Program-made: the position numbers and the translations under genes
The notes under the pieces: generated by a model
What the model was told of the DNA's origin: nothing
Seen by the model: the letters and a program-made list of their open reading frames with translations, nothing else
Databases searched by the model: none
In this document: positions 1-15,718 of the stretch, piece by piece
How positions within the stretch are numbered: the first letter of the stretch is position 1
Layout: every line of letters starts with the position of its first letter
Virus record (IMG/VR): IMGVR_UViG_2778261179_000013
Span: 1 to 16,612 of that record
Length of the DNA: 16,612 nt
From: a virus
Taxonomy: Duplodnaviria > Heunggongvirae > Uroviricota > Caudoviricetes
Direction: 5' to 3' (one strand)

Positions 1-891
1 TTACTTTGCAATGAGATCGGGGTCAACTTCGCTAACCCGGCATCGTTTTGACCGGTTGCCCGTCTTTCTTTTTTTCACTTTCGCCAGTTCTTCCGCGGAG
101 TAATGCGACGCGACATCCAGCCGTCGAAGCCCCATTTTGATGTACTCGCTGTTGATCTCAATACCAATGAATTTTCGTCCGCTGGCGATGGCTACGGCAC
201 CGGTAGTAAAGCTACCGGCAAACGGGTCGAGAACGATATCGCCTGGGTTGGAAGAGGCGAGAATAATGCGTTTCAGTAAGGCTTCCGGTTTTTGCGTCGG
301 GTGGTTCTCATATTCATCCATTAAATAACGCACGCGCGGAAAATCCCAGACGTTACCCGGTACTTTTTGATGATTGTATGGCTGTGGAGGATTTTTGCGA
401 TAATCGATCAACGCGCGCTGCGATCCGGTTTTGGCTTCTACCAGAATAGCATCACCGTTGAATGTGTAGTTCTTTGCGTCTTTCACCATCATCAGGATGG
501 GTTCGTACATGGAGCCGTAGTGTTTTTTCGCCTGTACTCCAGAACTGTCATATGACCAGACGATGCGACTTTTGATGGTAAAAAGCTTGCGGCACTGGAG
601 ATCGATAAAGGGCATGTTTTCCGTACTGTTCATAATGTACATGCTGCCCTGCTTTTTCAGAACGCGGTGGCACTCTGCAATCACTTCAAACAGCCAGTCG
701 ATAAACAGATCTTCTTTCCAGGCTTCGATCAGACCATCAAAATTTTTACCGATGTTATACGGTGGGTCGGCAAAGATCAGATCGACGCTTTCAGTAGGTA
801 GCTTTTTAAGTTCGGCAAGGGCATCACCGTGAATAATGGTCTTAGCTTCATTACCAAACCGGGTCGGTTCACATCCTGTTCTCATGGTCAC
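1..891 (-). CDS. yhdJ: DNA adenine N6-methyltransferase, CcrM-like beta-class (YhdJ-like), complete
   Basis: 296-aa ORF with stop codon at 1-3. Motif IV DPPY (FADPPYNIG) lies N-terminal to the AdoMet-binding motif I FAGSFTTG, which is the beta-class permutation; HPTQKP motif also present. From memory the protein is near-identical to E. coli YhdJ, whose gene lies just downstream of fis; the true start may be the second Met (883-885). Confidence 0.8.
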   Translation of the reverse strand: MTMRTGCEPTRFGNEAKTIIHGDALAELKKLPTESVDLIFADPPYNIGKNFDGLIEAWKEDLFIDWLFEVIAECHRVLKKQGSMYIMNSTENMPFIDLQCRKLFTIKSRIVWSYDSSGVQAKKHYGSMYEPILMMVKDAKNYTFNGDAILVEAKTGSQRALIDYRKNPPQPYNHQKVPGNVWDFPRVRYLMDEYENHPTQKPEALLKRIILASSNPGDIVLDPFAGSFTTGAVAIASGRKFIGIEINSEYIKMGLRRLDVASHYSAEELAKVKKRKTGNRSKRCRVSEVDPDLIAK

Positions 892-910
892 TCCCTTTGT
901 GACACCTATA

Positions 911-946
911 AAAAAGGCGCTTCCCCATGCCGAGTAGCGCCTTTTT
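911..946. terminator. Hairpin flanked by A5 and T5 runs (bidirectional intrinsic-terminator-like); probably the fis terminator
   Basis: aaaaaggcgct (911-921) is the reverse complement of agcgccttttt (936-946), with a 14-nt loop. It sits between the MTase start and the fis-like remnant. Confidence 0.5.
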
Positions 947-970
947 AATCAAGCATTTAGCTAACCTGAA

Positions 971-988
971 TTAGTTCATGCCGTACTG
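971..988 (-). other. fis 3'-end remnant (encodes YGMN-stop) and putative att core / island junction
   Basis: The minus strand reads cag tac ggc atg aac taa = Q-Y-G-M-N-stop (stop at 971-973). Fis ends ...KKYGMN. The frame is broken one codon further upstream (tga at 989-991) and there is no fis-sized ORF in 892-1155, so only the last codons are present. Confidence 0.45.
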
Positions 989-1115
989 TCATATTAGCTG
1001 TTTTCATGCTTTTAGATGATTTTAATATTCATATAATAATCAATGTGTTGTATAAATTCATGCCTGTATATTGTTCCAGTGTTTTTCTTTGTTTATGCTA
1101 TTATGTAAGCAATTC

Positions 1116-1137
1116 TGTATAAACATTTGTATAAACA
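1116..1137 (+). promoter_or_regulatory. Direct repeat TGTATAAACA x2 about 20 bp upstream of int; candidate promoter or recombinase/IHF-type site
   Basis: tgtataaaca at 1116-1125 and 1128-1137, within an AT-rich leader; a related tgtataaa lies near 1049. Confidence 0.3.
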
Positions 1138-1155
1138 CTTTGGGCTGGGTGGTCT

Positions 1156-2379
1156 ATGGCTGGCGAACTTAACAAACTGAGCGACAGGAAGTTAAAGGGA
1201 TTACATGGTATCCCGGCCAGTAAGATTGAGTTCTATGCTGATGGTGCCGGGCTGAGCGCCAAGGTAACTAAAGTTGGTGGTATTAGCTGGGTGTTTACTT
1301 ACCGACTCGACGGGCAGAAGCTGCATCGTCTTACTCTGGGACGATACCCGGATATGAGCCTCAAAGAGGCCCGTTCTTCGCGTGATAAATGCCGCCAATG
1401 GCTGGCCTCAGGTAAAGATCCAAAGCACCAGTTGGCGCTGACCACTCAGGAAACGCTTAAACCGGTCACTGTTAAGGAAGCTATCGAATACTGGATACGC
1501 GAATATGCAGAAGAGAACCGCGCGAATGTTGAAAGGCACAAAGCGGAGCTGCGTAAACACATTTATCCTTATATTGGGAAAATGGCGCTCGCTGACTGCG
1601 AAACCCGTTATTGGCTTGACTGCTTTGACAGGATGAAAAAGAAAACGCCAGTTGCTGCGGGTTATGTGTTCCAGATGTGCAAGCAAGCCCTGAAATTCTG
1701 CCGGGTTCGTCGCTATGCTGTGAGTACCGCGCTGGAAGATTTAACAATTCCAGATGTCGGTAAAAAACAGGCAAAAAAAGACCGGGTATTAAACGATAAA
1801 GAGGCTGGCGATTTATGGGCTGCCATTACCTCTGGAACTTGCTTCATGCCTTACTACACCAGGCTACTGACAATCTTAATGGTGTTTGGGTGCCGAACGC
1901 AGGAGGCCAGACTGTCAGAATGGAGTGAATGGGATATGGATGCCTGGGTCTGGACAGTTCCCAAAGAGCACAGCAAGGGCGGCGAGAAGATTGTAAGACC
2001 TGTGCCGGATGCCATGCGCAAATTCATTGAAATACTGCATGATGAAACGAAATTATCCGGCCTTTTGCTTGGGTCGGTTAAAGGCAGTGAAGCGGTAAGT
2101 CAGTGGGGCCGCGGTGTTTATAAAAAGCTGGGGCATTCTGAACCATGGACACTGCACGATCTAAGACGAACTTTAGCAACGCATATGAATAATATGGGTA
2201 TAGCACCACACGTTGTCGAACAGTTGTTGGGGCACTCAATGCCGGGAGTTATGGCGATTTATAACCGTAGTCTGTACTTGCCTGAGAAACTGGATGCGTT
2301 GAATAAATGGTATGACCGTCTCGATATTTTGGCGGGTAATCACTCGAATATTGTTATTTTAAAGGCTGGTGAGAAATGA
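1156..2379 (+). CDS. int: Tyrosine recombinase, P4-type phage integrase
   Basis: 407 aa. N-terminal arm-binding-type region (GLSAKVTKVGGISWVFTYRLDGQKLHRLTLGRYP), catalytic region with HDLRRTLATHM (HxxR) and the LGHSMPGVMAIYNRSLY tyrosine motif. Confidence 0.95.
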   Translation: MAGELNKLSDRKLKGLHGIPASKIEFYADGAGLSAKVTKVGGISWVFTYRLDGQKLHRLTLGRYPDMSLKEARSSRDKCRQWLASGKDPKHQLALTTQETLKPVTVKEAIEYWIREYAEENRANVERHKAELRKHIYPYIGKMALADCETRYWLDCFDRMKKKTPVAAGYVFQMCKQALKFCRVRRYAVSTALEDLTIPDVGKKQAKKDRVLNDKEAGDLWAAITSGTCFMPYYTRLLTILMVFGCRTQEARLSEWSEWDMDAWVWTVPKEHSKGGEKIVRPVPDAMRKFIEILHDETKLSGLLLGSVKGSEAVSQWGRGVYKKLGHSEPWTLHDLRRTLATHMNNMGIAPHVVEQLLGHSMPGVMAIYNRSLYLPEKLDALNKWYDRLDILAGNHSNIVILKAGEK

Positions 2380-2678
2380 AAAAGATAAATAAAATGACCG
2401 AATTACCGAAATGGTTTTCATTGGACAATTACAATTCTATCAATGGGCTGAGTGATCTTGATTTAATTAATCAGTTAGCTATGAGAATGGAAGTTGCTAA
2501 TGATGATTTTGAATGGCTTGATACCTATCCCGGAGCAAGAAATGAGTTCGCTTCATTTATGGAAGAAAGATTTAGTAACCCAATTCGGCCACTGAGCGGA
2601 AAATTATTTGCAGAAAAAATAAAAAGAAAAAATATTCTGAATGGCAAATGGATTCCGTCGGAGGTGTTGAGCCTTTAA
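2376..2678 (+). CDS. Hypothetical protein (AT-rich cargo ORF)
   Basis: 100-aa ORF whose ATG overlaps the int stop (ATGA at 2376-2379). Markedly AT-rich compared with the flanking genes. No motif recognised. Confidence 0.4.
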   Translation: MKKINKMTELPKWFSLDNYNSINGLSDLDLINQLAMRMEVANDDFEWLDTYPGARNEFASFMEERFSNPIRPLSGKLFAEKIKRKNILNGKWIPSEVLSL

Positions 2679-3163
2679 GATTAATTGATGTGATGCAGTT
2701 GTCTAAGAAAGCCGCTCATTATATTGATGAAAATAAAATTAATCGCTCATTGCGTGGACAAAAAAGGTCTGTAAGTAAGACCATAAGCGATAATGATCAA
2801 ATGCATATTACTTTAGATTTGTCTTGGCCTGATGAAATTTTATTAAGCGATTTGGCTGCATTGTTGCCAATATGGCGAATGGATCTTGAAAGGAAAAGTG
2901 AAAATAGTTGTAAGTTAAGTAATAGCTGGAGTGTAATCAAAAAGAAAATATTCGATTGCAAGATATTGCCAATGTTAGACCTTATGGAGTGGGCTAAAAT
3001 TAACAATGCAACAATCACTAACAGAGTTTTATCTTTAGCCCTGTTTCCTAATGCAGAGTATGACGCCATTGGTATCGCTCAAACGATCAAACCGTTCATT
3101 AGAAATTTTTCCGCAGATTTTTCTATAGAAATATTAAAGCGCAAAGCTATGGATTCATTTTAA
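2648..3163 (+). CDS. Hypothetical protein (AT-rich cargo ORF); start uncertain (alternative ATG at 2693)
   Basis: 171-aa ORF in a different frame, overlapping the previous ORF by 31 nt just after an A-rich run (2606-2632). Either a separate gene or the distal half of a frameshifted gene. No motif recognised. Confidence 0.45.
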   Translation: MDSVGGVEPLRLIDVMQLSKKAAHYIDENKINRSLRGQKRSVSKTISDNDQMHITLDLSWPDEILLSDLAALLPIWRMDLERKSENSCKLSNSWSVIKKKIFDCKILPMLDLMEWAKINNATITNRVLSLALFPNAEYDAIGIAQTIKPFIRNFSADFSIEILKRKAMDSF

Positions 3164-3266
3164 TCGGGAAATCCATATAGAAATAATTAAAAAATATCTA
3201 ATAGTGAACCATGCTTTTTAATAGCAAATAATAGCCTCCACAAAACGTAGAAACAGTGGAGGCAAC

Positions 3267-3551
3267 ATGCAAAATATCACCTTTATCCCGCCAAATCCTG
3301 AGCAGCGCCGCACCCTTTTAGAGGAGTACGGCTTTAAGTTCGACCGTCGAATCCGTGAAGAAGAATGTAGCGAGATCACCAGCCTTTCCCGTTCCAGCCG
3401 CTGGAAGATGGAACAGCAGGGGCGCTTCCCTCCGCGCTGTCACTTTGGCCGCAATAGCTGTGCCTGGCTTCTTTCGGATGTGCTCTGGTGGGTTCGTAAT
3501 CCGCCAGCAGTAGAGAACGTCAATAACCCGTACAGCCGCAAATCTGCTTAA
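3267..3551 (+). CDS. alpA: AlpA-family phage transcriptional regulator (helix-turn-helix)
   Basis: 94 aa. EITSLSRSSRWKMEQQGRFPPRCHFGRNSCAWLLSDVLWW matches the AlpA pattern (tGlSRst.Y ... G.FP ... G.rsv.W ... eV..Wl). GGAGG lies upstream of the ATG. Confidence 0.7.
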   Translation: MQNITFIPPNPEQRRTLLEEYGFKFDRRIREEECSEITSLSRSSRWKMEQQGRFPPRCHFGRNSCAWLLSDVLWWVRNPPAVENVNNPYSRKSA

Positions 3552-3571
3552 TTAACTACAGGTAATCGAAT

Positions 3572-4378
3572 ATGGAAAAAATAACTGCCTTGGCTGGCAG
3601 CGGCCAAACTCACCCCGAAACCAGCCAGAAAGATATTTCCAGCGATAATTTTGCTGCCCGGATCCCTGTAACCATGAGCACTATTGGTGGGAAAGAAACT
3701 CAGTCTGTAAGTGGTCGTAAGCTGCATACGTTTCTAGCTGTAGGGCGAGACTTTACCACCTGGATGAAAGCACGCATCAAACAGTATGGGTTTGTTAAAG
3801 GGGTTGATTATGTAATTGTTGAAGATTTGAGCACCCCAAAACGGGGGAGCGCAAAATCTCGCCAACAAGTCGAGCACGATTACATTGTCAGCCTGAATAT
3901 GGCTAAAGAGCTTTCTATGGTTGAGCGCAACGCGCAAGGCAAGATGGCCCGCCAGTATTTCATCGACTGTGAAGAACGTCTGCGCCGCGTAGCACCAGAG
4001 GAACATGAGGCGGCGTTGTTGGGCTGGCGTAAAAATCGTGTAGCTGCCTGCGAAGATCATAAGAGTATGGCCGATGCAATGAAGGGCTATATCGAGCGCA
4101 CCGGCGACAGGCAGCACGGCTTTGCCTACAGCAATGAATGCTCGTTCCTGAATAGCCTTGTGCTGGGTATGCACCCGCGAGTGTGGGCGAAACAGAAAGA
4201 AATTCCAGTTAAGCTGGTGCGTGACCATATGAACGCCGATCAGCTGGCGCTGCTGGCTTATCTGGAAAGCCGTGATTGTGCTCTGCTGGATCTTGATACC
4301 CGTACGGCAACCCGTAAGGCGAAACTCACCGAACTGGCACAACGCTGGCTGGTTAAGCGTGTTGGAGGTGCTGAGTGA
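3572..4378 (+). CDS. Phage antirepressor-like protein (AntA-type N-terminal domain)
   Basis: 268 aa. SGRKLHTFLAVGRDFTTWMKARIKQYGFVKGVDYVIV resembles the AntA/AntB antirepressor N-terminal motif (sARdLH.fL ... F..W ... ygF.eg.Dy). The C-terminal half is unassigned. Confidence 0.55.
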   Translation: MEKITALAGSGQTHPETSQKDISSDNFAARIPVTMSTIGGKETQSVSGRKLHTFLAVGRDFTTWMKARIKQYGFVKGVDYVIVEDLSTPKRGSAKSRQQVEHDYIVSLNMAKELSMVERNAQGKMARQYFIDCEERLRRVAPEEHEAALLGWRKNRVAACEDHKSMADAMKGYIERTGDRQHGFAYSNECSFLNSLVLGMHPRVWAKQKEIPVKLVRDHMNADQLALLAYLESRDCALLDLDTRTATRKAKLTELAQRWLVKRVGGAE

Positions 4379-4708
4379 TTTTGCATAACTCAATCAGGGT
4401 TGCGCAGAATTTGAGCCGACGAAATTCGCACGCGCAAATCAAGCTCGGTGATATGCCGAGTTTGAACAACCGCGTACTTTTAACGTACGGACATAGCAAC
4501 CCATTGAATCATCTTAATTATCGCGAAATGCGAGAATTGGCGAGCAACGAACACGAACAGTATTCGGGTTCGCCTGAACATCAACACTGCTTAGGTTCAG
4601 AGGTTCCGACGAATAACGTAGAGAGCTGCAATGGCAGCGCATTTTTGCTCTACGAGGGAAATCAACAACGTACAGTTTTGTACCGTAATCCAGATTTGGC
4701 TTACGAGA

Positions 4709-4768
4709 GGGTAGTACCTCAAAGTCACGAGGTTAACAGGGTAGTAACTCATAGTTACCAGGTTAACC
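4709..4768. repeat. Tandem direct repeat, 2 x 30 bp (25/30 identical), each unit containing GTTAAC
   Basis: gggtagtacctcaaagtcacgaggttaaca (4709-4738) and gggtagtaactcatagttaccaggttaacc (4739-4768). The units carry different internal stems (ACCTC/GAGGT in unit 1, GTAACT/AGTTAC in unit 2). Confidence 0.8.
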
Positions 4769-4877
4769 GCGTCGCTAAAAGATACGCGGAAAGCAAGACC
4801 TCTTTAAGAGGGGCAGTTCAGTGCGTGGAGACCTACGAAATTTTCGTAGGTCACAGCATTACCGAGAGTAACCCTGT

Positions 4878-5063
4878 TCAGCTTTCAGATTCCGATCTGG
4901 CTTTCTTGCGTTGGCGGCGTTTGATCTCGCATTGCATGGCTGTAACGATAAATTGGGCAGTGCTTTCGCCTTGCTCTTTAACTTGTTCCATTGCCTCGAC
5001 AACTTCATGCGGGGCACGAGTTTGCAATTTTTGTGATTTTTCGTTCTTTGTTCCCGTCGCCAT
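4878..5063 (-). CDS. Ribbon-helix-helix (Arc/CopG/MetJ-like) transcriptional regulator, probable island repressor
   Basis: 61 aa from the ATG at 5061-5063 (minus), preceded by AGGAGA with a 7-nt spacer. QKLQTRAP-HEVVEAMEQVKEQ-GES-TAQFIVTAMQCEI fits the RHH beta-strand / helix A / G-x-S turn / helix B pattern. The supplied ORF track starts it at a TTG at 5084. Confidence 0.65.
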   Translation of the reverse strand: MATGTKNEKSQKLQTRAPHEVVEAMEQVKEQGESTAQFIVTAMQCEIKRRQRKKARSESES

Positions 5064-5081
5064 TACTAAGTCTCCTGATAT

Positions 5082-5190
5082 CAAGTGGAGTACAGAATAC
5101 CAGAAAAATAATGAAATAAAACACTTGAAGTGGATTCCACTTTGTATTTATAGTGGAGTCCACCTTGAAGGGGTTCACCTTCAAGATATA
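5082..5190. promoter_or_regulatory. Divergent promoter/operator region with interleaved inverted repeats (half-sites AAGTGGA / TCCACTT and CACTT / AAGTG)
   Basis: cacttgaagtg (5122-5132) and aagtgga-t-tccactt (5128-5142) are overlapping palindromes; agtggagtccac (5152-5163) and ccttgaagg plus caccttcaag (5161-5185) follow. The region lies between the RHH gene and the rightward operon. Confidence 0.55.
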
Positions 5191-5261
5191 GCGAAGCCCG
5201 GCAGTGCGCGAACACTAACCGGGCCTCTGACCACCAAGATAGTTAACGTATCGAGGCAGCT

Positions 5262-5450
5262 ATGAAAGATTATATCACACACCCGCAAGGGCGGAAGTCC
5301 TACACCTGGCGTTTTCTGGCGCTGAGCGCCATCGGTCGCAACGTCATTCACATCAAAGCTACCACCGAACGCGAAGCCCGTGAGCAATCACCGGCTGGCT
5401 GCGTGATGGTATTCGCTGGCCGTCTGCCTGTGGAGGTGCGCCATGCGTGA
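5262..5450 (+). CDS. Hypothetical small protein (first gene of the rightward replication operon)
   Basis: 62-aa ORF with GAGG 5 nt upstream of the ATG; overlaps the next ORF. Confidence 0.5.
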   Translation: MKDYITHPQGRKSYTWRFLALSAIGRNVIHIKATTEREAREQSPAGCVMVFAGRLPVEVRHA

Positions 5451-5637
5451 GCCAATCAGCTTAGACCAGGCAGAATACAAATCAGCGCTGGCTGCTTCAC
5501 TTTTCGAAACCATTCTGGAAAAAGCCTGTGCTGAGTGTTCGGAAACCCTGCTGAACCATATCTCACTGGCATGTGACCTTAATCAGGAAATTCACCGGGC
5601 ATTAATCGCCGAGCTGGGTATGGGAGATGCGAAATGA
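5443..5637 (+). CDS. Hypothetical small protein
   Basis: 64-aa ORF with GGAGG 6 nt upstream of the ATG; its stop overlaps the next start (ATGA at 5634-5637). Confidence 0.5.
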   Translation: MREPISLDQAEYKSALAASLFETILEKACAECSETLLNHISLACDLNQEIHRALIAELGMGDAK

Positions 5638-5852
5638 GACAGGTTCCTTTTGAAGTCCTGATGCACGCTGAAAATGCCCTTTCTGAAAGCGAAGGAGCCT
5701 ATGAGGTTCTCAGCATGTGGCTAGACAGTATTCCTGAAGGCGAGGAGTTCCACGGTGAAGCGTGCAAGGTAAGCGCAATCATGTCGCTGCTGCATAAATC
5801 TATCGGCGAGCTGGTGAAAGCGCGGGAGGCTTACAGTGAAAAACGCGCCTAA
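5634..5852 (+). CDS. Hypothetical small acidic protein
   Basis: 72-aa ORF with GGAGA upstream; overlaps the start of the replication gene. Confidence 0.5.
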   Translation: MRQVPFEVLMHAENALSESEGAYEVLSMWLDSIPEGEEFHGEACKVSAIMSLLHKSIGELVKAREAYSEKRA

Positions 5853-7605
5853 CGTGAAAACCCTCCCACGCGACAAAATGGAGGAGGCCATCATCTTTGC
5901 CGGAACAGGAGCATGGAAAGCAGCTCAGGATTACCAGAAAGGTAAAGATGAGCATGGCGATGAGGTGCCGCCGGTTGTTCTGGATCATACCCAGCTGGCG
6001 GAATTACCCCACCTGCGCATTGTTGATAAAGGACGCCGATTTGCCCGTGTCTGTCAGGCCGGACTTATCGAACAAAACCAAATCAGTATGATTGCCAATA
6101 AGTTGTGTGAGGCTGGCGTTACCAATGCTGAGTTTATCAACGAAAAAGGTGAGAAAGAGGACTGGACGCCATTAATGAAGCGTCTGGAAGACGAGCCCCT
6201 AATGGTGACTACGAGGGGTAGCGCTACGCCAGCGCTTAACCAGATGGGAGCCAGCCAGCGCGGGGAAGTTCTGCTTGCTCATTACGATGGCAATCTGGCG
6301 ATCCATGCTGATTCCGACACGGTTCATCATTACAACGGCGTGGTGTGGGTTCCGCTTTCGGATAAAGAGCTGCAGCGAGAAATGGCGCAAATTTTTATTG
6401 ATGCCGAAGTCGCCTATTCGCAGAACGCGATTAAATCCGCTGTCGATACAATGAAGCTGGGTCTGCCAGTGATGGGTAACACAGCCCGAAATCTTATTGG
6501 TTTCAGCAACGGGGTTTTTGATACCCGGTTAGGGCAATTTCGACCACATGATAAAAAGGACTGGCTTATCGTTGCGAGCGAATTGCCATTCAGCGAACCA
6601 GCAGAAGGAGAGACTCTGGCAACCCATGCGCCGAACTTCTGGAAATGGCTCCGCCGCTCTGTGGCGGATAATGACAGAAAATCAGACCGCGTACTGTCTG
6701 CTCTGTTCATGGTGCTGGCGAACCGGTACGACTGGCAGCTGTTTCTTGAGGTAACGGGGCCGGGCGGAAGTGGTAAAAGTGTTATGGCTGAGATCTGCAC
6801 GATGCTGGCCGGCAAAGCCAATACGGTATCGGCAAGCATGGCGGCGCTGGAGAACCCAAGGGAAAGGGCGCTGGTGGTTGGCTATTCGCTGATTATCATG
6901 CCGGATATGACCCGGTACGCTGGCGACGGCGCAGGGATTAAAGCTATCACTGGCGGGGATAAGGTAGCTATCGACCCTAAACACAAAGCGCCGTATTCAA
7001 CGCGTATTCCGGCAGTGGTGCTGGCCGTCAATAACAATGCCATGTCATTCAGCGACCGAAGCGGTGGTATTTCGCGTCGTCGGGTTATTTTTAACTTCTC
7101 AGAGGTGGTACCGGAAAACGAACGTGATCCTATGCTTGCCGAGAAGATTGAAGGTGAGCTGGCCGTTATCATTCGCCACCTGCTTACTCGCTTTTCCAGA
7201 CAGGACGAGGCCAAACAGCTTTTGCATGAGCAGCAGAAATCAGAAGAGGCGCTGGCCATCAAACGTGAAGGGGATTCACTGGTGGACTTTTGCGGCTACC
7301 TGATGGCTTCGGTCGTATGTGATGGCATGTTTATCGGGAACGCCGAGATCGTACCGTTCAGCCCGCGCCGTTATCTGTATCACGCTTATCTGGCTTATAT
7401 GCGGGCTAACGGCCTGAGCAAGCCGGTGTCGCTGATGAGGTTCGGCACGGATATGCCAGGCGCAATGGCTGAATATGGCAAGGAGTACCAGAAGCGCAAA
7501 ACAAAACATGGCATAAGATCAAACGTCACACTTCACGACGATTCAGAAGACTGGATGCCTATGTGGAATGATACTTCTCACAATACCGGAGAAAATCAAA
7601 AGTAA
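5836..7605 (+). CDS. Replication initiator / SF3 helicase of the P4 alpha (D5-like) family (PICI pri-rep-like)
   Basis: 589 aa. Walker A VTGPGGSGKS, a Walker B-like LIIMPDMT region, and a D5_N-like segment (IGFSNGVFDTRLGQFRPHDKKDW). GTG start at 5836 is preceded by GGGAGG with a 7-nt spacer. No EGYATA-type primase motif seen in the N-terminal ~300 aa. Confidence 0.85.
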   Translation: MKNAPNVKTLPRDKMEEAIIFAGTGAWKAAQDYQKGKDEHGDEVPPVVLDHTQLAELPHLRIVDKGRRFARVCQAGLIEQNQISMIANKLCEAGVTNAEFINEKGEKEDWTPLMKRLEDEPLMVTTRGSATPALNQMGASQRGEVLLAHYDGNLAIHADSDTVHHYNGVVWVPLSDKELQREMAQIFIDAEVAYSQNAIKSAVDTMKLGLPVMGNTARNLIGFSNGVFDTRLGQFRPHDKKDWLIVASELPFSEPAEGETLATHAPNFWKWLRRSVADNDRKSDRVLSALFMVLANRYDWQLFLEVTGPGGSGKSVMAEICTMLAGKANTVSASMAALENPRERALVVGYSLIIMPDMTRYAGDGAGIKAITGGDKVAIDPKHKAPYSTRIPAVVLAVNNNAMSFSDRSGGISRRRVIFNFSEVVPENERDPMLAEKIEGELAVIIRHLLTRFSRQDEAKQLLHEQQKSEEALAIKREGDSLVDFCGYLMASVVCDGMFIGNAEIVPFSPRRYLYHAYLAYMRANGLSKPVSLMRFGTDMPGAMAEYGKEYQKRKTKHGIRSNVTLHDDSEDWMPMWNDTSHNTGENQK

Positions 7606-7860
7606 TGGGAAAAGTGTTCACCACTATTCACTGTGGATAAAATCGTTTATATAACAGATATTTAAGGGGTGAACACTTTTTATTGAAGTGTTCACCAAGT
7701 ATTCACCTGTTCACCTTTAAAGGGCTTTTCTTTTAAAAGGTGAAGGGTTAGGGTGAACACTAGTGAATACTTAAAATTATAGTCTTCACCCTGTAACCAT
7801 ATGAATTTGAATGGAAAAAATGCAAAGGTGAACAGGTGAACACTTAAACGCATATTTTTT
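7606..7860. repeat. Iteron array and AT-rich tract; putative origin of replication (P4 ori/crr-like)
   Basis: At least 10 copies of GGTGAACA(CTT) or its reverse complement (AAG)TGTTCACC, e.g. 7612-7622, 7668-7678, 7686-7696, 7709-7716, 7751-7760, 7826-7833, 7834-7844, plus variants (tattcacc, gtgaatac, cttcacc), followed by T-rich runs at 7852-7866. Placement immediately 3' of the replication gene is typical for these satellites. Confidence 0.75.
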
Positions 7861-7878
7861 ATTTTTACGAGGCTGCAT

Positions 7879-8223
7879 ATGGAAATTTTAGGCAACCATA
7901 ACGACAAGTTTCACGGCATCAAATTTCTGCATAGTGCAATTGAAGAAATGAATGAGAAAGCTGAAGTAACTCTGACCGACTATCTGGCTCTTAGGGCTTT
8001 TGTTCTGGCTGAGCGAAGAGAAACTCAGGACTACATTGATGCAATGGATGAAACGTATGCTGATTTGCCCGATGATCTGCGTTCTTACATTGAGCTTCTT
8101 AATGACGTTGCCGCACAGCTATCAAATCCATCACGCTCAAATGGGAATTTAAAATCAATTATTTACGATGCGAGAATATCAAGCGGAAACGCCATGTCTC
8201 ACTGGTTCAGTGTTGATAGATAG
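7879..8223 (+). CDS. Hypothetical protein (AT-rich cargo, gene 1 of a two-gene cassette)
   Basis: 114-aa ORF with ACGAGG 6 nt upstream of the ATG. Acidic and predicted helical; no motif recognised. Compositionally distinct from the flanking replication and head genes. Confidence 0.55.
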   Translation: MEILGNHNDKFHGIKFLHSAIEEMNEKAEVTLTDYLALRAFVLAERRETQDYIDAMDETYADLPDDLRSYIELLNDVAAQLSNPSRSNGNLKSIIYDARISSGNAMSHWFSVDR

Positions 8224-8246
8224 TAAAATCTAAGAAGGGATAACTA

Positions 8247-9092
8247 ATGCGTACTAATGATGATTTACAGATAATCCGAAAGCATCTGGATGGTGAATTT
8301 GAACAGCGCCTGTTAGACGCTGCGATCAATAACCTTTTGGATGAAAATAATCAGCTTCGGTTCAGCAATTATGCCTATGCACTTAGAGAGCTATTCTTAC
8401 ACGTTCTAAAACGCATGGCACCTGATGAAAATGTTCAACTATGCGAGTGGTTTCCTGGTTTGAATGAAAGAGAGCAGGTTGCAAGAAAAGACTCTTACAA
8501 ATATATCATTCATGGTGGGTTAAGTGATGAATATGTCAGGGATGTACTTGATGTAAATATTGCCGGAGTAATTCCGGGATTGCGTGATGCGTTCTACTCA
8601 TTAAATAAATTTACTCACATAAGCGAAAAGATTTTTCCAATTAATGATGACGATGGCCTAAAAATGGTGGGAGAGGTTGAAGGTTGCATCGGAGCTCTTT
8701 TCACCAAGCTTGATGAGTGTCATAAGGAGATAATTAATAAGCTTTATGAAGCTGTGAGTGAGGCCGCGATACATAGTTCGATAACTGAAACTGTAACATC
8801 AATTGATATTTTATCGACACACAGCTCGGTTGATGAAGTGTATGTTGATGATGTGAAAATAGTAGAAATAAATGACTCTGAAGTAATTTTCTCTGTTAGT
8901 GGCTCTGTAGGTGTCGGGTTGCAATGGGGATCTAATTCCGATTTGCGAAATGACATAGGTGCTGTAGGTAGAGAAACATTCCCATTTACCTGCGAGGTGA
9001 GAAGTCCAGTGTATGCCCCTGAACGTTTAGAGTGTGATGAAGGGGCATTCCATGCAGATACTTCAAGTTGGTGGGAAGGATATTACGACTAA
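8247..9092 (+). CDS. Hypothetical protein (AT-rich cargo, gene 2 of a two-gene cassette)
   Basis: 281-aa ORF with AAGAAGGGA upstream of the ATG. Helical N-terminal region containing an R-x4-H motif (RELFLH) and a beta-rich C-terminal region. Followed by an intrinsic terminator. Confidence 0.6.
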   Translation: MRTNDDLQIIRKHLDGEFEQRLLDAAINNLLDENNQLRFSNYAYALRELFLHVLKRMAPDENVQLCEWFPGLNEREQVARKDSYKYIIHGGLSDEYVRDVLDVNIAGVIPGLRDAFYSLNKFTHISEKIFPINDDDGLKMVGEVEGCIGALFTKLDECHKEIINKLYEAVSEAAIHSSITETVTSIDILSTHSSVDEVYVDDVKIVEINDSEVIFSVSGSVGVGLQWGSNSDLRNDIGAVGRETFPFTCEVRSPVYAPERLECDEGAFHADTSSWWEGYYD

Positions 9093-9128
9093 CAAGTGTA
9101 AATTATTCGTCCTCGCGTTTATTAGTGC

Positions 9129-9160
9129 TTAGCCCGATAAAATTCGGGCTTTTATTTATT
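9129..9160 (+). terminator. Rho-independent terminator after the cargo cassette
   Basis: Stem agcccg (9131-9136) / cgggct (9145-9150) with an 8-nt loop, followed by tttatttatt (9151-9160). Confidence 0.6.
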
Positions 9161-9324
9161 ATTTTCATGTATATGTTGAGAAGTGGCACTCAGACGTGAG
9201 CCGCCACTGGCCGTTAAATCAAGCTGTAGCGAGTACAGCCTGTGGGATGCAGAAAAAGATTTAACGGCCTCCCCTCCAAGCGCTGGTTTCACGTCTCTAC
9301 GTTAATTGATACGGAAACCACTCC

Positions 9325-10491
9325 ATGAAGAAACTACTCGAATTACGCCAGCAGAAAGCCACACTCAAAACCCAGATGCGTTCCATGCTGGACAAAGCCG
9401 ACACCGAAAAGCGCAGCCTGAACGAAGAAGAGGGCAAAAAGTTCGATGAACTCCGCGCCCAGGCTGATGCGCTTGAAGTTGAAATTACCCGCCTCGAAGC
9501 CGTCGCCGACGATCAGCGCAATCTGCCTGGTACTTCCGTTGAAGGTGAGCTAGTAAGCAACGACGAGCTGCGTCACTACATTATGACCGGTGATACCCGT
9601 TCTCTCTCCACGCTGGTGCAGGCTGACGGCGGTTATACCGTTATTCCTGAACTGGACAAAGAGATCATGCGTCAGTTGCAGGATGATAGCGTGATGCGCT
9701 CCATCGCAACGGTAAAGACCACCAAAACCAACGAATACCAGAAACTGGTATCTGTGGGCGGCACTACCGTTAAGCGCGGTACCGAAGGCGAAGCGCGTAC
9801 CGAAACCAGCACGCCGAAGATGGAGCGTGTTGATATCAAACTCAACCCGATCTACGCCTATCCGAAAACCACTCAGGAAATTCTCGACTTCTCTGAGGTG
9901 GATATTCTGGGCTGGCTGTCTTCTGAAATTGCCGACACCTTCACCGCTACCGAAGAGAGCGACTTTGTGAACGGCGACGGTGATAAAAAATCCAAAGGGT
10001 TCCTGTCTTACCCTCGCGCGGCCACAGCCGATAAAACCCGCCCGTTCGGTACGCTGGAGAAGATGGAAGCTGCTGACGTTTCCTCTGATGGCCTGATCGA
10101 CCTGCTGTATAAGCTGAAAGCCAAATACCGCAAAAACGCCGTATGGGTGATGAACTCCAATACCGCGGCCAAACTGCAAAAGCTGAAAAACGGCAACGGG
10201 GATTACATCTGGCGAGATCGTCTGGTTGCCGGTTCTCCCGATACGCTGCTGGGCCGTCCGGTTCAATATCTCGAAACCATGCCAGATGCGGAAGCAGGTG
10301 AAGCGTTCCTTGCTGTGGGCGACTTCAAACGCGGCTATTTCATCGTGGATCACACCACTGGTGTGCGTACCCGTCCTGACAACATCACCGAACCGGGTTT
10401 CTACAAGGTACATACCGATAAATACCTGGGCGGCGGCGTGGTGGACTCCAACGCCATCAAGGTGCTTGAGCTTTCCGGCTCCGGTTCCTGA
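9325..10491 (+). CDS. Major capsid protein, HK97 family (with N-terminal delta/scaffold-like coiled coil)
   Basis: 388 aa. N-terminal coiled-coil region (LELRQQKATLKTQMRSMLDKADTEKRSLNEEEGKKFDELRAQADALEVEITRLEA) and HK97-MCP-like core blocks (GGYTVIPE ... AVWVMNSNTAAKLQKLKNGNGDYIW ... LLGRPV ... GDFKRGYFIVDH). Confidence 0.9.
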   Translation: MKKLLELRQQKATLKTQMRSMLDKADTEKRSLNEEEGKKFDELRAQADALEVEITRLEAVADDQRNLPGTSVEGELVSNDELRHYIMTGDTRSLSTLVQADGGYTVIPELDKEIMRQLQDDSVMRSIATVKTTKTNEYQKLVSVGGTTVKRGTEGEARTETSTPKMERVDIKLNPIYAYPKTTQEILDFSEVDILGWLSSEIADTFTATEESDFVNGDGDKKSKGFLSYPRAATADKTRPFGTLEKMEAADVSSDGLIDLLYKLKAKYRKNAVWVMNSNTAAKLQKLKNGNGDYIWRDRLVAGSPDTLLGRPVQYLETMPDAEAGEAFLAVGDFKRGYFIVDHTTGVRTRPDNITEPGFYKVHTDKYLGGGVVDSNAIKVLELSGSGS

Positions 10492-10539
10492 TTTGACGTT
10501 TGAGGGGCTTAGGCCCCTTTTCTCCTGTGGAGTCCAACA

Positions 10540-11100
10540 ATGAAAACAATTGATTTTGAAATCCGCACCTCCGATCTGAGCGCCAGTAACAAAAAGCTGG
10601 TGGGCTATGCCGTGCGCTGGAACAGTCTCTCTGAAATTATCTGGGACGAGTTCCGCGAGCAGTTTGCGCCGGGAGCGTTTAAAGACAGCCTGGCATCAGG
10701 TAGCGATGTGCGTGCGCTGTACGAGCATAACTATACCCAGCTGCTGGGCCGCACTAAATCCGGAACGCTGGTGCTGTCCGAAGACGATACCGGGCTGCGC
10801 TTCGAGCTGACCCCGCCGAATACCCAGCTTGGTAACGATGTGCTGGAGCTGGTGGAGCGTGGTGATATCTCCGGCATGAGCTTTGGTTTCCGGGCGCTGA
10901 AAGAGGCGTGGGATATCGGCCAGTCTCCATACCTGCGCACTGTTACCGCAGCCGAACTGCGGGAGATTACCGTTACCTCTATGCCTGCTTATCCTGAGTC
11001 TGGCGTGGAAATCGCGCACCGTTCGCTTTTCTCCCAACATCCTGAACTGCGCCGCGCTGGCGATAACCGTCGCCGCTGGGCTGAATTAGCGGGGCTCTGA
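10540..11100 (+). CDS. Prohead maturation protease, HK97 family (S78-like)
   Basis: 186 aa. LVGYAVRWNS ... FAPGAFKDSL ... LYEHNY ... GMSFGF fits the HK97 prohead protease pattern, including the candidate His and Ser residues. Confidence 0.85.
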   Translation: MKTIDFEIRTSDLSASNKKLVGYAVRWNSLSEIIWDEFREQFAPGAFKDSLASGSDVRALYEHNYTQLLGRTKSGTLVLSEDDTGLRFELTPPNTQLGNDVLELVERGDISGMSFGFRALKEAWDIGQSPYLRTVTAAELREITVTSMPAYPESGVEIAHRSLFSQHPELRRAGDNRRRWAELAGL

Positions 11101-11101
11101 T

Positions 11102-12337
11102 ATGTGGAATATCTGGCCGTTTGGCCGCAAGTCTGAACCCTCTGAGCAGCGCAGCATGACCATTGATGAATTTCTGGCGATGGCAGGGATTCCAAATACC
11201 GGATCAGGCGAGTATGTGTCTGCGGGTACTGCGGAATCTCTGCCGGCGGTCATGAACGCCGTATCAGTTATCAGTGAGGCGGTGGCAACAATGCCATGCT
11301 ATCTCTACCGCGTCCGTAATGATAATGGTCGTGAGGCGCGAGAATGGCTGAGTAATCACCCGGTGGATTTTCTCCTGAACGAGCAGCCGAACGACTGCCA
11401 GACGCCTTATCAGTTTAAACGCACGATGATGCGCCATTGTCTGCTGAACGGTAACGCCTATGCGGTGATCCAGTGGGGCCGCGACGGCCAGCCGCAATCC
11501 CTGCACCCGTATGCGCCGGGGGCGGTTGTTCCTGAGCGTATCGGCCAGCATAAGTACAAATACACCGTTACAGAGCCGTTTACCGGGGCTGTGCGCACCT
11601 ATCTACAGGAAGAGATTCTGCACCTGCGTTACTCCACCGATGATGGCTTTCTGGGGCGTTCGCCTATTACTACGTGCCGTGAGGCGCTGGGGTTAGGTCT
11701 GGCCCAACAGCGCCACGGTGCCAGCATTATGAAAGATGGCATGATGGCGGCGGGCGTCGTCACTACTGCTGAATGGCTCGACAGCGTGAAGGGTAAGCAG
11801 GCTCTGGACGCACTGGAGCGCTACAAAGGTGCCAGAAATGCCGGGAAAACGCCGATCCTTGAAGGTGGCATGGATTATAAGCAGCTGGGCATGAGCAATC
11901 AGGATGCCGAATGGCTGGCCTCTCGTCGCTTCACCATTGAAGACATTGCCCGCATGTTCAACGTGTCGCCTATCTTCCTGCAGGAATACAGCAACAGCAC
12001 CTACAGCAATTTCAGCGAAGCGAGCCGCGCCTTTCTTACCATGACGATGCGCCCGTGGCTGGCGAACTTCGAACAACAAATCAAATCTGCGCTGCTGGTG
12101 GCCTCCCCAGTCCCAGGAACCCGTTATCAGGTGGAGTTTGACTCTGCTGACCTTCTCCGCGCCACGCCAACCGAACGTTATGCCACTTATGAGCGCGGTA
12201 TTAAGAACGGGATCATGAACCCGAACGAAGCCCGAGAGCGTGAGGGGATGCCACCGCGTGAAGGTGGTGACGAATTCAGCCAGGCATGGAAGCAGGAAGT
12301 GAAGATCAGCAAAGACGGCAAGGAAGGTGACGCATGA
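11102..12337 (+). CDS. Portal protein, HK97 family
   Basis: 411 aa. Conserved blocks LLNGNAYAVI, GFLGRSPI, FTIEDIARMFNVSPIFLQE and NPNEAREREGMPP match the HK97-type portal pattern. Its start is 2 nt after the protease stop. Confidence 0.9.
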   Translation: MWNIWPFGRKSEPSEQRSMTIDEFLAMAGIPNTGSGEYVSAGTAESLPAVMNAVSVISEAVATMPCYLYRVRNDNGREAREWLSNHPVDFLLNEQPNDCQTPYQFKRTMMRHCLLNGNAYAVIQWGRDGQPQSLHPYAPGAVVPERIGQHKYKYTVTEPFTGAVRTYLQEEILHLRYSTDDGFLGRSPITTCREALGLGLAQQRHGASIMKDGMMAAGVVTTAEWLDSVKGKQALDALERYKGARNAGKTPILEGGMDYKQLGMSNQDAEWLASRRFTIEDIARMFNVSPIFLQEYSNSTYSNFSEASRAFLTMTMRPWLANFEQQIKSALLVASPVPGTRYQVEFDSADLLRATPTERYATYERGIKNGIMNPNEAREREGMPPREGGDEFSQAWKQEVKISKDGKEGDA

Positions 12338-12672
12338 GAGCCGGGGGGCTGAGAAGCCGCGTCACTATTCGGGTATTCACTACCCACAGGGAGCCGTCCG
12401 GTCAGGTTGTTCAGGTCTGGGAAGACGGGGAAACCATATGGGCTGAGGTTAAGGGGATCAGTGGCCGAGAGTTAATGGCGTCAGGTGCCGAGGTTGCCGA
12501 AGCGACGATCCGCGTTTGGGTGCGTTTCCGCCGTGATATTACCGCAGCCAACCGTCTGAAAGTGCTTACTGGCCCGTTTGCTGGCAGCACTCTCAATATT
12601 ATCGGGCCTCCTATTCCTGATTCGGAAGGTACCCGGCTGGAAATTCTCTGCAAGACAGGAACGGAAAAATGA
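12334..12672 (+). CDS. Head-tail adaptor / head closure protein (SPP1 gp16-like)
   Basis: 112 aa; RVTIRVFTTHREPSGQVVQVWEDGETIWAEVKGISGRE fits the head-tail joining family pattern. ATGA overlap with the portal gene. Confidence 0.7.
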   Translation: MRAGGLRSRVTIRVFTTHREPSGQVVQVWEDGETIWAEVKGISGRELMASGAEVAEATIRVWVRFRRDITAANRLKVLTGPFAGSTLNIIGPPIPDSEGTRLEILCKTGTEK

Positions 12673-12962
12673 CAGCAGAAATCACCCTGGATGAAGCAAA
12701 GCTGCATTGCCGTATTGATGATGATTACGAAGATACGTTGATACAGGCGTACATCGATGCGGCGCTGGAGGTTTGCCAGAAGCATATCGGCAAGCGGTTT
12801 GATAACGGGCTGGAGTTTACGCCAGCTATCAAGATTGGCTGTCTGATGTACGTATCTCAGCTGTACGAGTACCGCACGATGATTGGTGATACCGACGCCA
12901 AAGAGATACCGATGGCTGTCTCTGCGTTGTGGTCTGTCTATCGTGATGTGGGGGTGTACTGA
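12669..12962 (+). CDS. Head-tail connector protein (gp6-like)
   Basis: 97 aa; ITLDEAKLHCRIDDDYEDTLIQAYIDAALEVCQKHIGKR ... YEYR fits the gp6-like connector pattern. ATGA overlap with the upstream gene. Confidence 0.7.
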   Translation: MTAEITLDEAKLHCRIDDDYEDTLIQAYIDAALEVCQKHIGKRFDNGLEFTPAIKIGCLMYVSQLYEYRTMIGDTDAKEIPMAVSALWSVYRDVGVY

Positions 12963-13405
12963 TGCCGTGGCAACCACTACGCCGGTGCAATGAGCCTGGA
13001 TGTAATAAACGGGTGAAGTCTGGCAAGTGTGACGAGCATAAGCGGGATGCCCGCCGACAAAGCGACAGCCGAAGAGGTACGCGAACAGAGCGTGGTTACT
13101 CCAACCGCTGGGGCGAATACCGTCGTCATTTTCTAAAAGCTAATCCGCTGTGTGTCCATTGTCTCAAGGCTGGCGTCTATGCATCGGCAACTATCGTCGA
13201 TCACATCATCCCTATCGAGGGTGAAGCTGATGTGCTGTTCTGGCCCGCCAGTAATCACCAGTCGTTATGCGCTGCCTGTCATGGACGGAAGACAACCACA
13301 ACAGACCCGGTGACGAAGCAGCAGCGTAAAGCCGGTAAGTTCCGCGAGCAGGAAGAAGCAGCACGTCATCGCACCGACTGGATCTATGAGGCAAACAATG
13401 ACTGA
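12962..13405 (+). CDS. HNH endonuclease (packaging-associated)
   Basis: 147 aa. Cys-rich N-terminus (CNEPGCNKRVKSGKCDEH) and an HNH core (CVHC ... DHIIPIEGEADVLFWPASNHQSLCAACHGRKT). Position next to the terminase genes is typical of HNH-cos packaging systems. Confidence 0.85.
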   Translation: MPWQPLRRCNEPGCNKRVKSGKCDEHKRDARRQSDSRRGTRTERGYSNRWGEYRRHFLKANPLCVHCLKAGVYASATIVDHIIPIEGEADVLFWPASNHQSLCAACHGRKTTTTDPVTKQQRKAGKFREQEEAARHRTDWIYEANND

Positions 13406-13550
13406 GCAGGAACAGCAGCGGCTGATTAGTGGGCTGATAAAGCAGCGTGAGTCATGGCAACCAGCCAGACAGAGAGCGCATAAGAAGCCCGTAGCAAAGC
13501 GCATGAGCCAGCGTGACCGGGAGCTTATGGAATGCTTTCGCAACCGCTGA
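13398..13550 (+). CDS. Possible small basic protein (50 aa), unannotated in the ORF track
   Basis: The ATG at 13398 overlaps the HNH gene end and the frame is open to the TGA at 13548-13550, giving MTEQEQQRLISGLIKQRESWQPARQRAHKKPVAKRMSQRDRELMECFRNR. Below the track's length cut-off; low support. Confidence 0.3.
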   Translation: MTEQEQQRLISGLIKQRESWQPARQRAHKKPVAKRMSQRDRELMECFRNR

Positions 13551-13680
13551 CAGGCCGAATGGACGGGGTGGGGGAGGTTTTAAAGACAAACCCCTCTCAG
13601 CGAGGAACCACCCGCCCCCTCAAATTTTTACGCACGGTGATTTTTTTGAAAATAAAACGCGACGGAAACGAGAAATTTTT

Positions 13681-14037
13681 ATGGCAAGACCACCCAAACC
13701 GCCAGCTTACCTTGATGAGTTAGCTGCGCAGCAGTGGAAAGCGAAGGCGAAGCAACTGGCGGAGCGCGGGGATTTGACTCCCGCCGACTGGAACAACCTT
13801 GAGCTTTTTTGCGTCAACTATTCGATGTACCGCAAAGCCGTGGAAGACCTTGCCAGCCGTGGGTTCAGCATTGTTAACAGCCAGGGCGGTGAGAGCCGAA
13901 ATCCGGCGCTGAGCGCAAAGGCCGATGCTGAAAAAATCATGATTAAAATGTCGTCGCTGCTGGGCTTTGATCCGGTAAGCCGCCGCCGGAACCCGGTGGA
14001 AACGGAGGAGGAAGACGAGCTTGACCGTCTGGAATGA
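13681..14037 (+). CDS. terS: Terminase small subunit (P27-family-like)
   Basis: 118 aa from the ATG at 13681: MARPPKPPAYLDELAAQQWKAKAKQLAERGDLTPADWNNLELFCVNYSMYRKA ... The track ORF from 13513 adds an implausible Gly-rich N-terminal extension, so the internal ATG is preferred. Confidence 0.8.
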   Translation: MARPPKPPAYLDELAAQQWKAKAKQLAERGDLTPADWNNLELFCVNYSMYRKAVEDLASRGFSIVNSQGGESRNPALSAKADAEKIMIKMSSLLGFDPVSRRRNPVETEEEDELDRLE

Positions 14038-15682: not shown

Positions 15683-15718
15683 TAGTGCTTGAACTTTTCA
15701 AATTGTCACTGTAATTCT

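Follow-up and report, generated by a model that had tools for sequence, protein, structure and literature searches.

What lies between the integrase gene and the activator gene of the phage satellite in IMGVR_UViG_2778261179_000013, and is it one gene or two? The window analysed here (positions 1 to 16,612 of this IMG/VR Caudoviricetes record, 16,612 nucleotides (nt)) is a capsid-forming phage-inducible chromosomal island (cf-PICI), a phage satellite integrated beside the chromosomal methylase gene yhdJ. Directly downstream of its integrase gene, int, and upstream of alpA, open reading frames (ORFs) of 100 and 171 amino acids (aa) lie in different frames and overlap by 31 nt after an A-rich run; a preliminary description of the sequence had reported them, and its coordinates proved correct. 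That description left three options: two small genes, one gene split by a homopolymer frameshift (genuine or a sequencing error), or a programmed slippage site. Our analysis indicates that positions 2376-3163 are very probably a single gene of the DUF6387 family, carrying a genuine and recent loss-of-function allele in which a run of seven A residues (A7) has become six (A6), and not a gene pair or a recoding site. On this reading, the features of the locus are as follows.

2376..3163, + strand: complete DUF6387-family gene, 262 codons when intact, present here as a frameshifted allele
2376..2678, + strand: ORF1, 100 aa, native codons 1-85 followed by 15 out-of-frame codons (NILNGKWIPSEVLSL)
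2627..2632, + strand: A6 tract, the frameshift site
2648..3163, + strand: ORF2, 171 aa, native codons 91-262
2958, + strand: window-specific G, giving TGC (Cys) where Escherichia coli ABW_S38 and the A6 carrier L018 have TAC (Tyr), that is, Tyr195Cys, from a three-way table of single-nucleotide polymorphisms (SNPs)

Two ORFs and one DUF6387 profile

The preliminary description had recognised no family here, but both ORFs match the Pfam family PF19924 (DUF6387; profile length 258) above its gathering threshold of 28.9 bits. ORF1 scores 35.8 bits over profile positions 1-42 and ORF2 scores 65.8 bits over positions 93-248; a fusion made by adding one base scores 100 bits over positions 1-248 of 258, so that the hidden Markov model search proposed earlier for the separate and fused translations returned the same family for all three. 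The single polypeptide of 245-300 aa that spans the profile in family members is missing from the window, where the profile is divided over two ORFs, and we regard the window copy as a disrupted DUF6387 member because a single 262-aa protein is read only after insertion of an A at 2627-2632. Relative to ORF1, ORF2 occupies the −1 frame, the two sharing 2648-2678. The A-rich run at 2611-2633 reads GCAG-A6-T-A5-G-A6-T, and the native frame is open from 2633. The ORF2 frame is also open 5′ of the A6 tract, and one A added there therefore fuses ORF1 with ORF2.

Intact alleles of this kind exist, in E. coli ABW_S38 and in many Enterobacteriaceae. Among 5426 complete E. coli genomes, only ABW_S38 has this cargo (99.8% identity over 961 nt, with one extra base), and there the annotation has an uninterrupted 262-aa 'DUF6387 family protein' (WP_220233126.1), matching the single ORF of about 260 aa for which the preliminary description had advised looking in homologous islands. 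In the pairwise alignment the sole difference at the junction (2627-2632) is A7 in ABW_S38 versus A6 in the window. The ABW_S38 protein reads ...EKIKRKKYSEWQMDSVGG... across the junction, which is ORF1 joined to the upstream-extended ORF2 frame, and the fused window protein is identical to WP_220233126.1 bar Tyr195Cys.

Homologues are single ORFs, not the two separate conserved genes that would have spoken for a gene pair. A search of 5.8 billion proteins gave 16 relatives, 14 of them full-length (245-269 aa); the two short ones have 159 aa and 147 aa, the latter continuing into unrelated sequence. Searching 1.84 billion representatives with the profile returned 1122 clusters, typically of 250-300 aa, and these clusters and the profile matches (n=57) are essentially single ORFs of 245-300 aa. 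The family residues F14, Y19, R37, D153, R168, D202, W206 and T237 are kept across both frames of the window copy, and Y195 is Cys. The subfamily alignment shows no variation at K85, Y87, S88 or Q91; the A tract is AGA AAA AAA within the conserved R-K-K-Y-S and encodes part of the subfamily motif K-(K/R)-Y-S. Both halves of intact alleles are under purifying selection, with a ratio of non-synonymous to synonymous substitution rates (dN/dS, omega) of ~0.1-0.2 among close alleles; against a 70%-identical allele, dN is 0.21 and dS is saturated. An AlphaFold2 model from an 80-sequence alignment predicts one compact, mostly helical fold that runs through the junction (pLDDT 93.5, pTM 0.85), with the frameshift at the end of the helix 75-84.

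RefSeq lists the two ORFs as separate proteins, holding ORF1 exactly as WP_000723557.1 ('DUF6387 family protein') and ORF2 exactly as WP_244569834.1, and ORF2 starts with ATG, as would be expected of two true small genes of 100 aa and 171 aa. Such a pair is nevertheless scarcely credible, given that both ORFs tile one Pfam profile, that the homologues are single ORFs and that the predicted structure is one compact fold. Moreover, the last 15 residues of ORF1 are out of frame and have no counterpart in any homologue, and no canonical Shine-Dalgarno sequence lies 5′ of the ORF2 ATG at 2648 (upstream sequence TTCTGAATGGCAAATG). The two RefSeq entries are thus most probably fragments of one inactivated gene with no recoding signal, and their correction is one use of this result.

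The event itself can be described simply. Replication slippage at a homopolymer hot spot would remove one A and convert AGA AAA AAA into AGA AAA AA (2627-2632). With one A missing from the A7 tract, translation leaves the native frame after codon 85 and stops at 2678, and the remaining 176 codons form a second ORF in the −1 frame. The int stop codon overlaps the DUF6387 start (ATGA at 2376-2379), and the gene is the second of the int operon of the cf-PICI; the best explanation for the window copy is that it contributes nothing beyond possible trace read-through. The region is as strikingly AT-rich as first described, with a GC content of 0.34 across 2376-3163 versus 0.48 for int and 0.54 for alpA.

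The A6 allele in independent assemblies

The tract was surveyed in 22 close loci. Intact readings were AGA AAA AAA TAT (A7), AGG AAA AAA TAT and CGC AAA AAA TAT, all of which encode R-K-K-Y. The broken reading AGA AAA AAT was found in the window and in three other sequences, namely the GenBank assembly GCA_000250195.2 and the Logan assemblies of SRR096435 and SRR3987998. Over 5.7 kb the SRR3987998 sequence and the window match completely (100%); the remaining two carriers differ from the window at 24 positions, four of them within the island, and the A6 carriers form two SNP-distinct sublineages. Tyr195Cys is common to the window and SRR3987998 and affects a residue without variation in the subfamily and with conservation of at least 90% in the 80-sequence family alignment. 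The sister sublineage (L017 and L018) has kept Tyr195 and carries a Val-to-Phe change at 2657. One amino-acid change per sublineage would fit relaxed selection after inactivation, weakly so with single substitutions. In addition, the A7-to-A6 loss recurs, on another haplotype, in a 100-aa fragment (P0018) from eight more contigs with E. coli-type and Enterobacter-type flanks; that haplotype agrees with the intact allele of L035 at 15/16 other variable sites, and the tract is therefore a recurrent deletion hot spot.

These comparisons of sequences indicate that the A6 allele is probably real, and the sequencing error considered in the preliminary description is accordingly a poor explanation. 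In that case the strain would truly be A7 and its gene intact. We count for an error the homopolymer at this site, the A7 of the nearest complete genome (ABW_S38) and the presumable origin of GCA_000250195.2 (read set SRR096435) in the era of homopolymer-error-prone platforms. However, a one-off error is unlikely because A6 was assembled independently, in at least three read sets or assemblies, and occurs in two sublineages; A6 is also present in the eight contigs of the other haplotype, which come from unrelated samples, and the window has an extra substitution at a conserved Tyr, as expected after true inactivation. We consider an error quite unlikely.

Recoding and phase variation as alternatives

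Could the full-length protein still be made in normal expression, by a programmed −1 ribosomal frameshift or by transcriptional slippage? ORF2 is in the −1 frame, the heptamer A_AAA_AAT (2627-2633) has the form X_XXY_YYZ in the correct phase (zero-frame AGA AAA AAT), and a P-site slip on AAA would restore the wild-type R-K-K-Y. The likeness to the −1 frameshift sites of dnaX and insertion sequence (IS) elements extends to the A-rich heptamer in phase and the downstream ORF in the −1 frame, but unlike those sites the window has neither a stimulatory stem-loop nor an upstream Shine-Dalgarno sequence, its shift is not conserved and its heptamer is owed solely to the deletion. The 67 nt 3′ of the heptamer fold with a minimum free energy (MFE) of −12 kcal/mol, no better than shuffled sequence (z = 0.06), and no Shine-Dalgarno-like stimulator lies 5′ of it. 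Among the marks of a programmed −1 site, the heptamer is present, and a stimulator and conservation among homologues are absent. A single ORF without a shift is the ancestral form and by far the most frequent one, and no homologue at any distance needs a shift. Recoding as the normal route to the protein, including the programmed slippage suggested at the outset, is most improbable.

An unlikely, but somewhat less remote, alternative is phase variation, in which the A7/A6 tract would be a reversible ON/OFF switch of DUF6387 operated by slipped-strand mispairing. It would agree with the origin of A7-to-A6 at least two times on different haplotypes, with further indel alleles inside the same A-rich stretch (P0026 and P0028) and with the frequency of loss-of-function alleles in the family, from which an OFF state may be advantageous. 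But seven As make a short tract for a contingency locus, the lengths found were A7 and A6 with no A8 alleles, the OFF alleles bear secondary damage, and other disruptions lie outside repeats or in repeats other than this one. Many intact alleles interrupt the run (AGG AAA AAA and CGC AAA AAA), which shows that it is not kept as a switch, and the tract is explained simply by two Lys codons after an Arg codon. A single DUF6387 gene with a genuine A6 loss-of-function allele therefore stays our preferred reading. Two points weigh against it: A6 is known from assemblies, not reads, and a systematic homopolymer miscall is possible; and at the in-phase A_AAA_AAT, low-level −1 or transcriptional slippage might restore some full-length protein.

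Other disrupted DUF6387 copies

Loss-of-function alleles are common in the DUF6387 family among the contigs compared, with independent disruptions in unrelated elements. Close relatives include a Q91-stop allele (P0023, 6 contigs), a C deletion at codon 72 in Citrobacter braakii, two junctions to foreign sequence at codons 83-86 and one in-frame 27-aa deletion. The disrupted entries of C. braakii are P0019 and P0036. Further away, the copy of E. coli CFS3292 (L010 2686-3488) is split by a T4-to-T3 change, that of Serratia sp. L9 (L015 5995-6767) is split at a G run, and that of Kosakonia (L052 4868-5756) is split into 51 + 251 aa. In the close group the disrupted share is ~1/10 of copies, an approximate figure from contig counts. 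Several breaks fall within codons 72-95, where the helical N-terminal part gives way to the remainder of the protein. We give this clustering little weight because the fragments were retrieved by similarity to ORF1, which favours that position; it may be an artefact of ascertainment or may mirror the placement of homopolymers.

A persistent neighbour of alpA

The gene is flanked by int and alpA, with a hairpin in the alpA leader.

1156..2379, + strand: int, tyrosine integrase of 407 aa (Pfam Arm-DNA-bind_3 and Phage_integrase)
2383..3226, + strand: exchangeable cassette with no nucleotide homology to sister islands, bounded by blastn breakpoints
3234..3263, + strand: hairpin in the alpA leader, GCCUCCAC-N14-GUGGAGGC (MFE −15.3 kcal/mol, z = −5.7)
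3267..3551, + strand: alpA, 94 aa (Pfam Phage_AlpA, E = 4e-10)

In Gram-negative PICIs, AlpA acts as master activator and also regulates excision (10.1101/2022.09.08.507074; PMC11773190). DUF6387 stands directly 5′ of alpA in every element class examined, at 24% to 100% identity. Among relatives at 30-100% identity the order Int, DUF6387, AlpA, primase is found in all loci, with the DUF6387 start overlapping the int stop. The 293-aa subfamily (24-26% identity), abundant in Salmonella and E. albertii, also sits between int and alpA, after a gap of 140-330 bp from int. Other genes separate int from DUF6387 in Kosakonia, where DUF6387 still abuts alpA, and a tRNA-Leu island of Salmonella houtenae has int, DUF6387 and an unannotated 68-aa AlpA-like ORF, in order. 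The trio of int, DUF6387 and an AlpA-like gene recurs in CP018459.1 (L043), the 16,971-bp circular 'plasmid' pKp_Goe_795-4 of Klebsiella pneumoniae, which looks like an excised, circularised cf-PICI and not a plasmid. CP018459.1, deposited as a non-mobilisable plasmid, also has capsid, head-tail adaptor, terminases and a gene annotated as tape measure.

The linkage extends to two published islands in which DUF6387 lies directly 5′ of AlpA, namely the mobilisable EARL-family element ICEKp258.2 and an island of Serratia (PMC10763509, PMC9964261). In ICEKp258.2 of K. pneumoniae the gene is ORF28 (KPNJ2_RS09320), a DUF6387-family member directly upstream of an AlpA-family gene, but it lies at the island end opposite int (PMC10763509), whereas in the window its start overlaps the int stop codon. 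Phage and plasmid records searched by tblastn contain almost no members of the family (2 and 1 matches, respectively), and of these one 'plasmid' match is an excised cf-PICI and one 'phage' record is in fact a contig of a bacterial chromosome. A scan of genome contigs found only 2 loci. In distant islands Int, DUF6387 and AlpA have diverged in step, with all three at 24-29% identity. Because DUF6387 adjoins alpA in every element class examined, it is an old partner of alpA and not arbitrary cargo.

An exchangeable cassette between int and alpA

Within closely related islands, the same position is variable. Nucleotide homology found by blastn ends at window position 2382 (or 2342) and resumes at 3227 against L013, L012 and L011; the sister islands compared were L012 (E. 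coli PE15), L013 (QL57EC), L011 (D8) and L060 (OW1E2), and their int and alpA flanks are 88-98% identical. E. coli QL57EC and the window share 93% of Int, 96% of AlpA and 33% of DUF6387 residues. In other sister islands at the yhdJ site an unrelated gene replaces DUF6387, of 272 aa in PE15 or of 216 aa in OW1E2, the latter followed by ~600 nt without an annotated gene. In these E. coli islands the variant DUF6387 and the two unrelated genes sit between int and alpA flanks of 93-98% identity. The occupants of the sister slots have no Pfam match above the curated cut-off, and PADLOC gave no match for the two slot occupants tested, the 272-aa protein and a 267-aa DUF6387 variant. Hidden homology of the PE15 272-aa cassette to DUF6387 was also considered, and was rejected at an hhalign probability of 1%. 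In every host examined the GC content of the slot occupant is 9-16 points below that of int. The preliminary description had taken the place next to int for a variable-cargo slot, which is borne out by the other cassettes between conserved flanks; the idea of arbitrary cargo gives way to the constant adjacency to alpA.

Variable antiviral-gene hot spots next to int in P4-like satellites were reportedly described by Rousset et al. in 2022. The window slot resembles them in being int-proximal, AT-rich and exchangeable, with conserved flanks, unrelated alternatives and frequent loss. It differs in that no occupant of the window slot matches a known defence family in PADLOC, and in the predominance of one family, DUF6387, among its occupants in islands that are only very distantly related, a pattern unusual in hot spots that serve cargo alone.

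A hairpin over the alpA ribosome-binding site

The alpA Shine-Dalgarno sequence (GGAGG), located 4-8 nt ahead of the ATG at 3267, forms part of the 3′ arm of the leader hairpin. Leaders of the loci were folded one sequence at a time, and equivalent hairpins with different complementary stems were predicted at 10/14 loci. Stems of diverged islands are ACCCUCAC/GUGAGGGU, GCCCUUG/CGAGGGC, UGCUCUCG/CGAGAGCA and UGUCCUCG/CGAGGACA; the UGCUCUCG/CGAGAGCA hairpin, from the Klebsiella element L043, is followed by U7 and is terminator-like. Islands of the 293-aa subfamily lack a leader hairpin. The hairpin may be a translational or termination block that holds alpA off in int-operon transcripts.

Possible roles of DUF6387

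Intact DUF6387 would be made in the uninduced, quiescent island, because it appears to be translationally coupled to int and the hairpin would occlude the alpA ribosome-binding site. It would behave as a specificity cassette of the conflict type, that is, AT-rich, exchanged, often lost and under purifying selection while intact. From its expected production in the quiescent state, together with these properties and no co-variation with Int or AlpA, we infer that DUF6387 most likely faces an external partner. Our tentative assignment is a protein directed at phages, and a phage-interference or defence cassette is the reading we rate highest, at slightly short of an even chance. A helper- or signal-sensing modulator of the AlpA induction and excision switch is unlikely but worth considering, and some other role has a slightly smaller share still.

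Any functional assignment is drawn from genomic context. Four DUF6387 variants and the PE15 cassette had no match in PADLOC-DB v2 at E <= 0.1, the AlphaFold model had no fold match in the PDB or BFVD (Foldseek BFVD E >= 3.9), and ten longer family members had no fused domains; in the literature searched, DUF6387 occurs only within two annotation tables, with no experimental work. Its unvarying place beside alpA, in islands of very different kinds, suits a core regulatory role no less well than a defence role. Solved structures searched by sequence with the family profile likewise gave nothing (best E = 0.21), NCBIfam gave no match, and PHROGs gave only a family of unknown function.

The regulatory reading stays alive because alpA adjacency is strict even in islands that are not phage satellites. 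A comparison with the Stl master repressors of Staphylococcus aureus pathogenicity islands (SaPIs) is instructive: both are proteins of ~260 aa encoded next to int, mostly helical, highly divergent among similar islands and made in the quiescent state (for DUF6387, as predicted above). However, DUF6387 is co-directional with the gene it would regulate, whereas Stl is divergent, and loss-of-function alleles of DUF6387 persist in integrated islands. This persistence of knocked-out copies argues against an essential repressor; moreover, neither an Stl-like helix-turn-helix nor any other DNA-binding fold was detected in DUF6387. A bolder proposal, which we think improbable, is that DUF6387 would be the missing quiescent component of the AlpA switch of Gram-negative PICIs and related islands, an orphan-fold and fast-swapping sensor of the helper or another signal that frees alpA from its leader hairpin or terminator, with A7 as a cheap ON/OFF toggle of inducibility.

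A homopolymer frameshift such as this one is an ordinary event, and the finding itself is in a sense already known, because the Pfam family is catalogued and both fragments are in RefSeq under its name. Not described in the literature searched are the linkage of DUF6387 to alpA across island classes, the exchange of the cassette and the alpA leader hairpin. The interest of the locus lies in an uncharacterised protein with no detectable fold relative, whose gene keeps its place beside alpA in PICIs, cf-PICIs and mobilisable genomic islands and has been inactivated naturally time and again. The literature describes how helper phages switch on alpA as unknown; the position of DUF6387 upstream of alpA and of a hairpin predicted to occlude its ribosome-binding site therefore makes a concrete and cheap experimental target.

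The surrounding island

The remaining genes of the window place it among the cf-PICIs.

1-891, − strand: yhdJ, chromosomal methylase
3572-4378: antA
5836-7605: D5-type primase (Pfam D5_N/DUF5906/Pox_D5)
7879-8223: 114-aa protein of phrog_7232, a family of unknown function
8247-9092: 281-aa protein with pP_pnuc_1 and pP_pnuc_2 domains (PADLOC 'Aga_Nuclease', E = 7e-84)

Pfam matches identify int, alpA and a primase/replicase module, and an own capsid and packaging module is present in an island of ~15 kb with no tail or lysis genes; no tail gene was found among the window ORFs scanned. The primase is followed by an AT-rich insert and then, in order, by capsid, protease, portal, connectors, HNH, TerS and TerL. 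Phage_capsid, Terminase_4 and TerL domains were detected in the window itself, the protease and portal annotation is taken from the 99.9% identical ABW_S38 island, and that of the connectors and HNH from L005. The prototype cf-PICI EcCIEDL933 has the same modules in the same order over ~15 kb (int, alpA, primase/replicase, HK97-type capsid protein, protease, portal, connectors, HNH, TerS and TerL); it differs in that its published account (10.1101/2022.09.08.507074) is silent on a gene between int and alpA. No convincing direct repeat of at least 14 nt joins both island ends as attachment (att) sites.

At the right island end, beyond terL, an AT-rich 297-aa ORF without a Pfam match occupies 15719-16612 on the − strand (GC 0.33-0.44). 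The AT-rich insert between the primase and capsid genes, the second in the window (7600-9100, GC 0.34-0.42), holds the 114-aa and 281-aa proteins; despite the 'Aga_Nuclease' match of the latter, no Argonaute gene lies within the window. Gene calls conflict at 4375-5265 (+ strand), where the Logan and NCBI drafts have a 296-aa ORF without a family match and RefSeq for ABW_S38 has solely a small YlcI/YnfO-family gene on the − strand (window 4878-5084).

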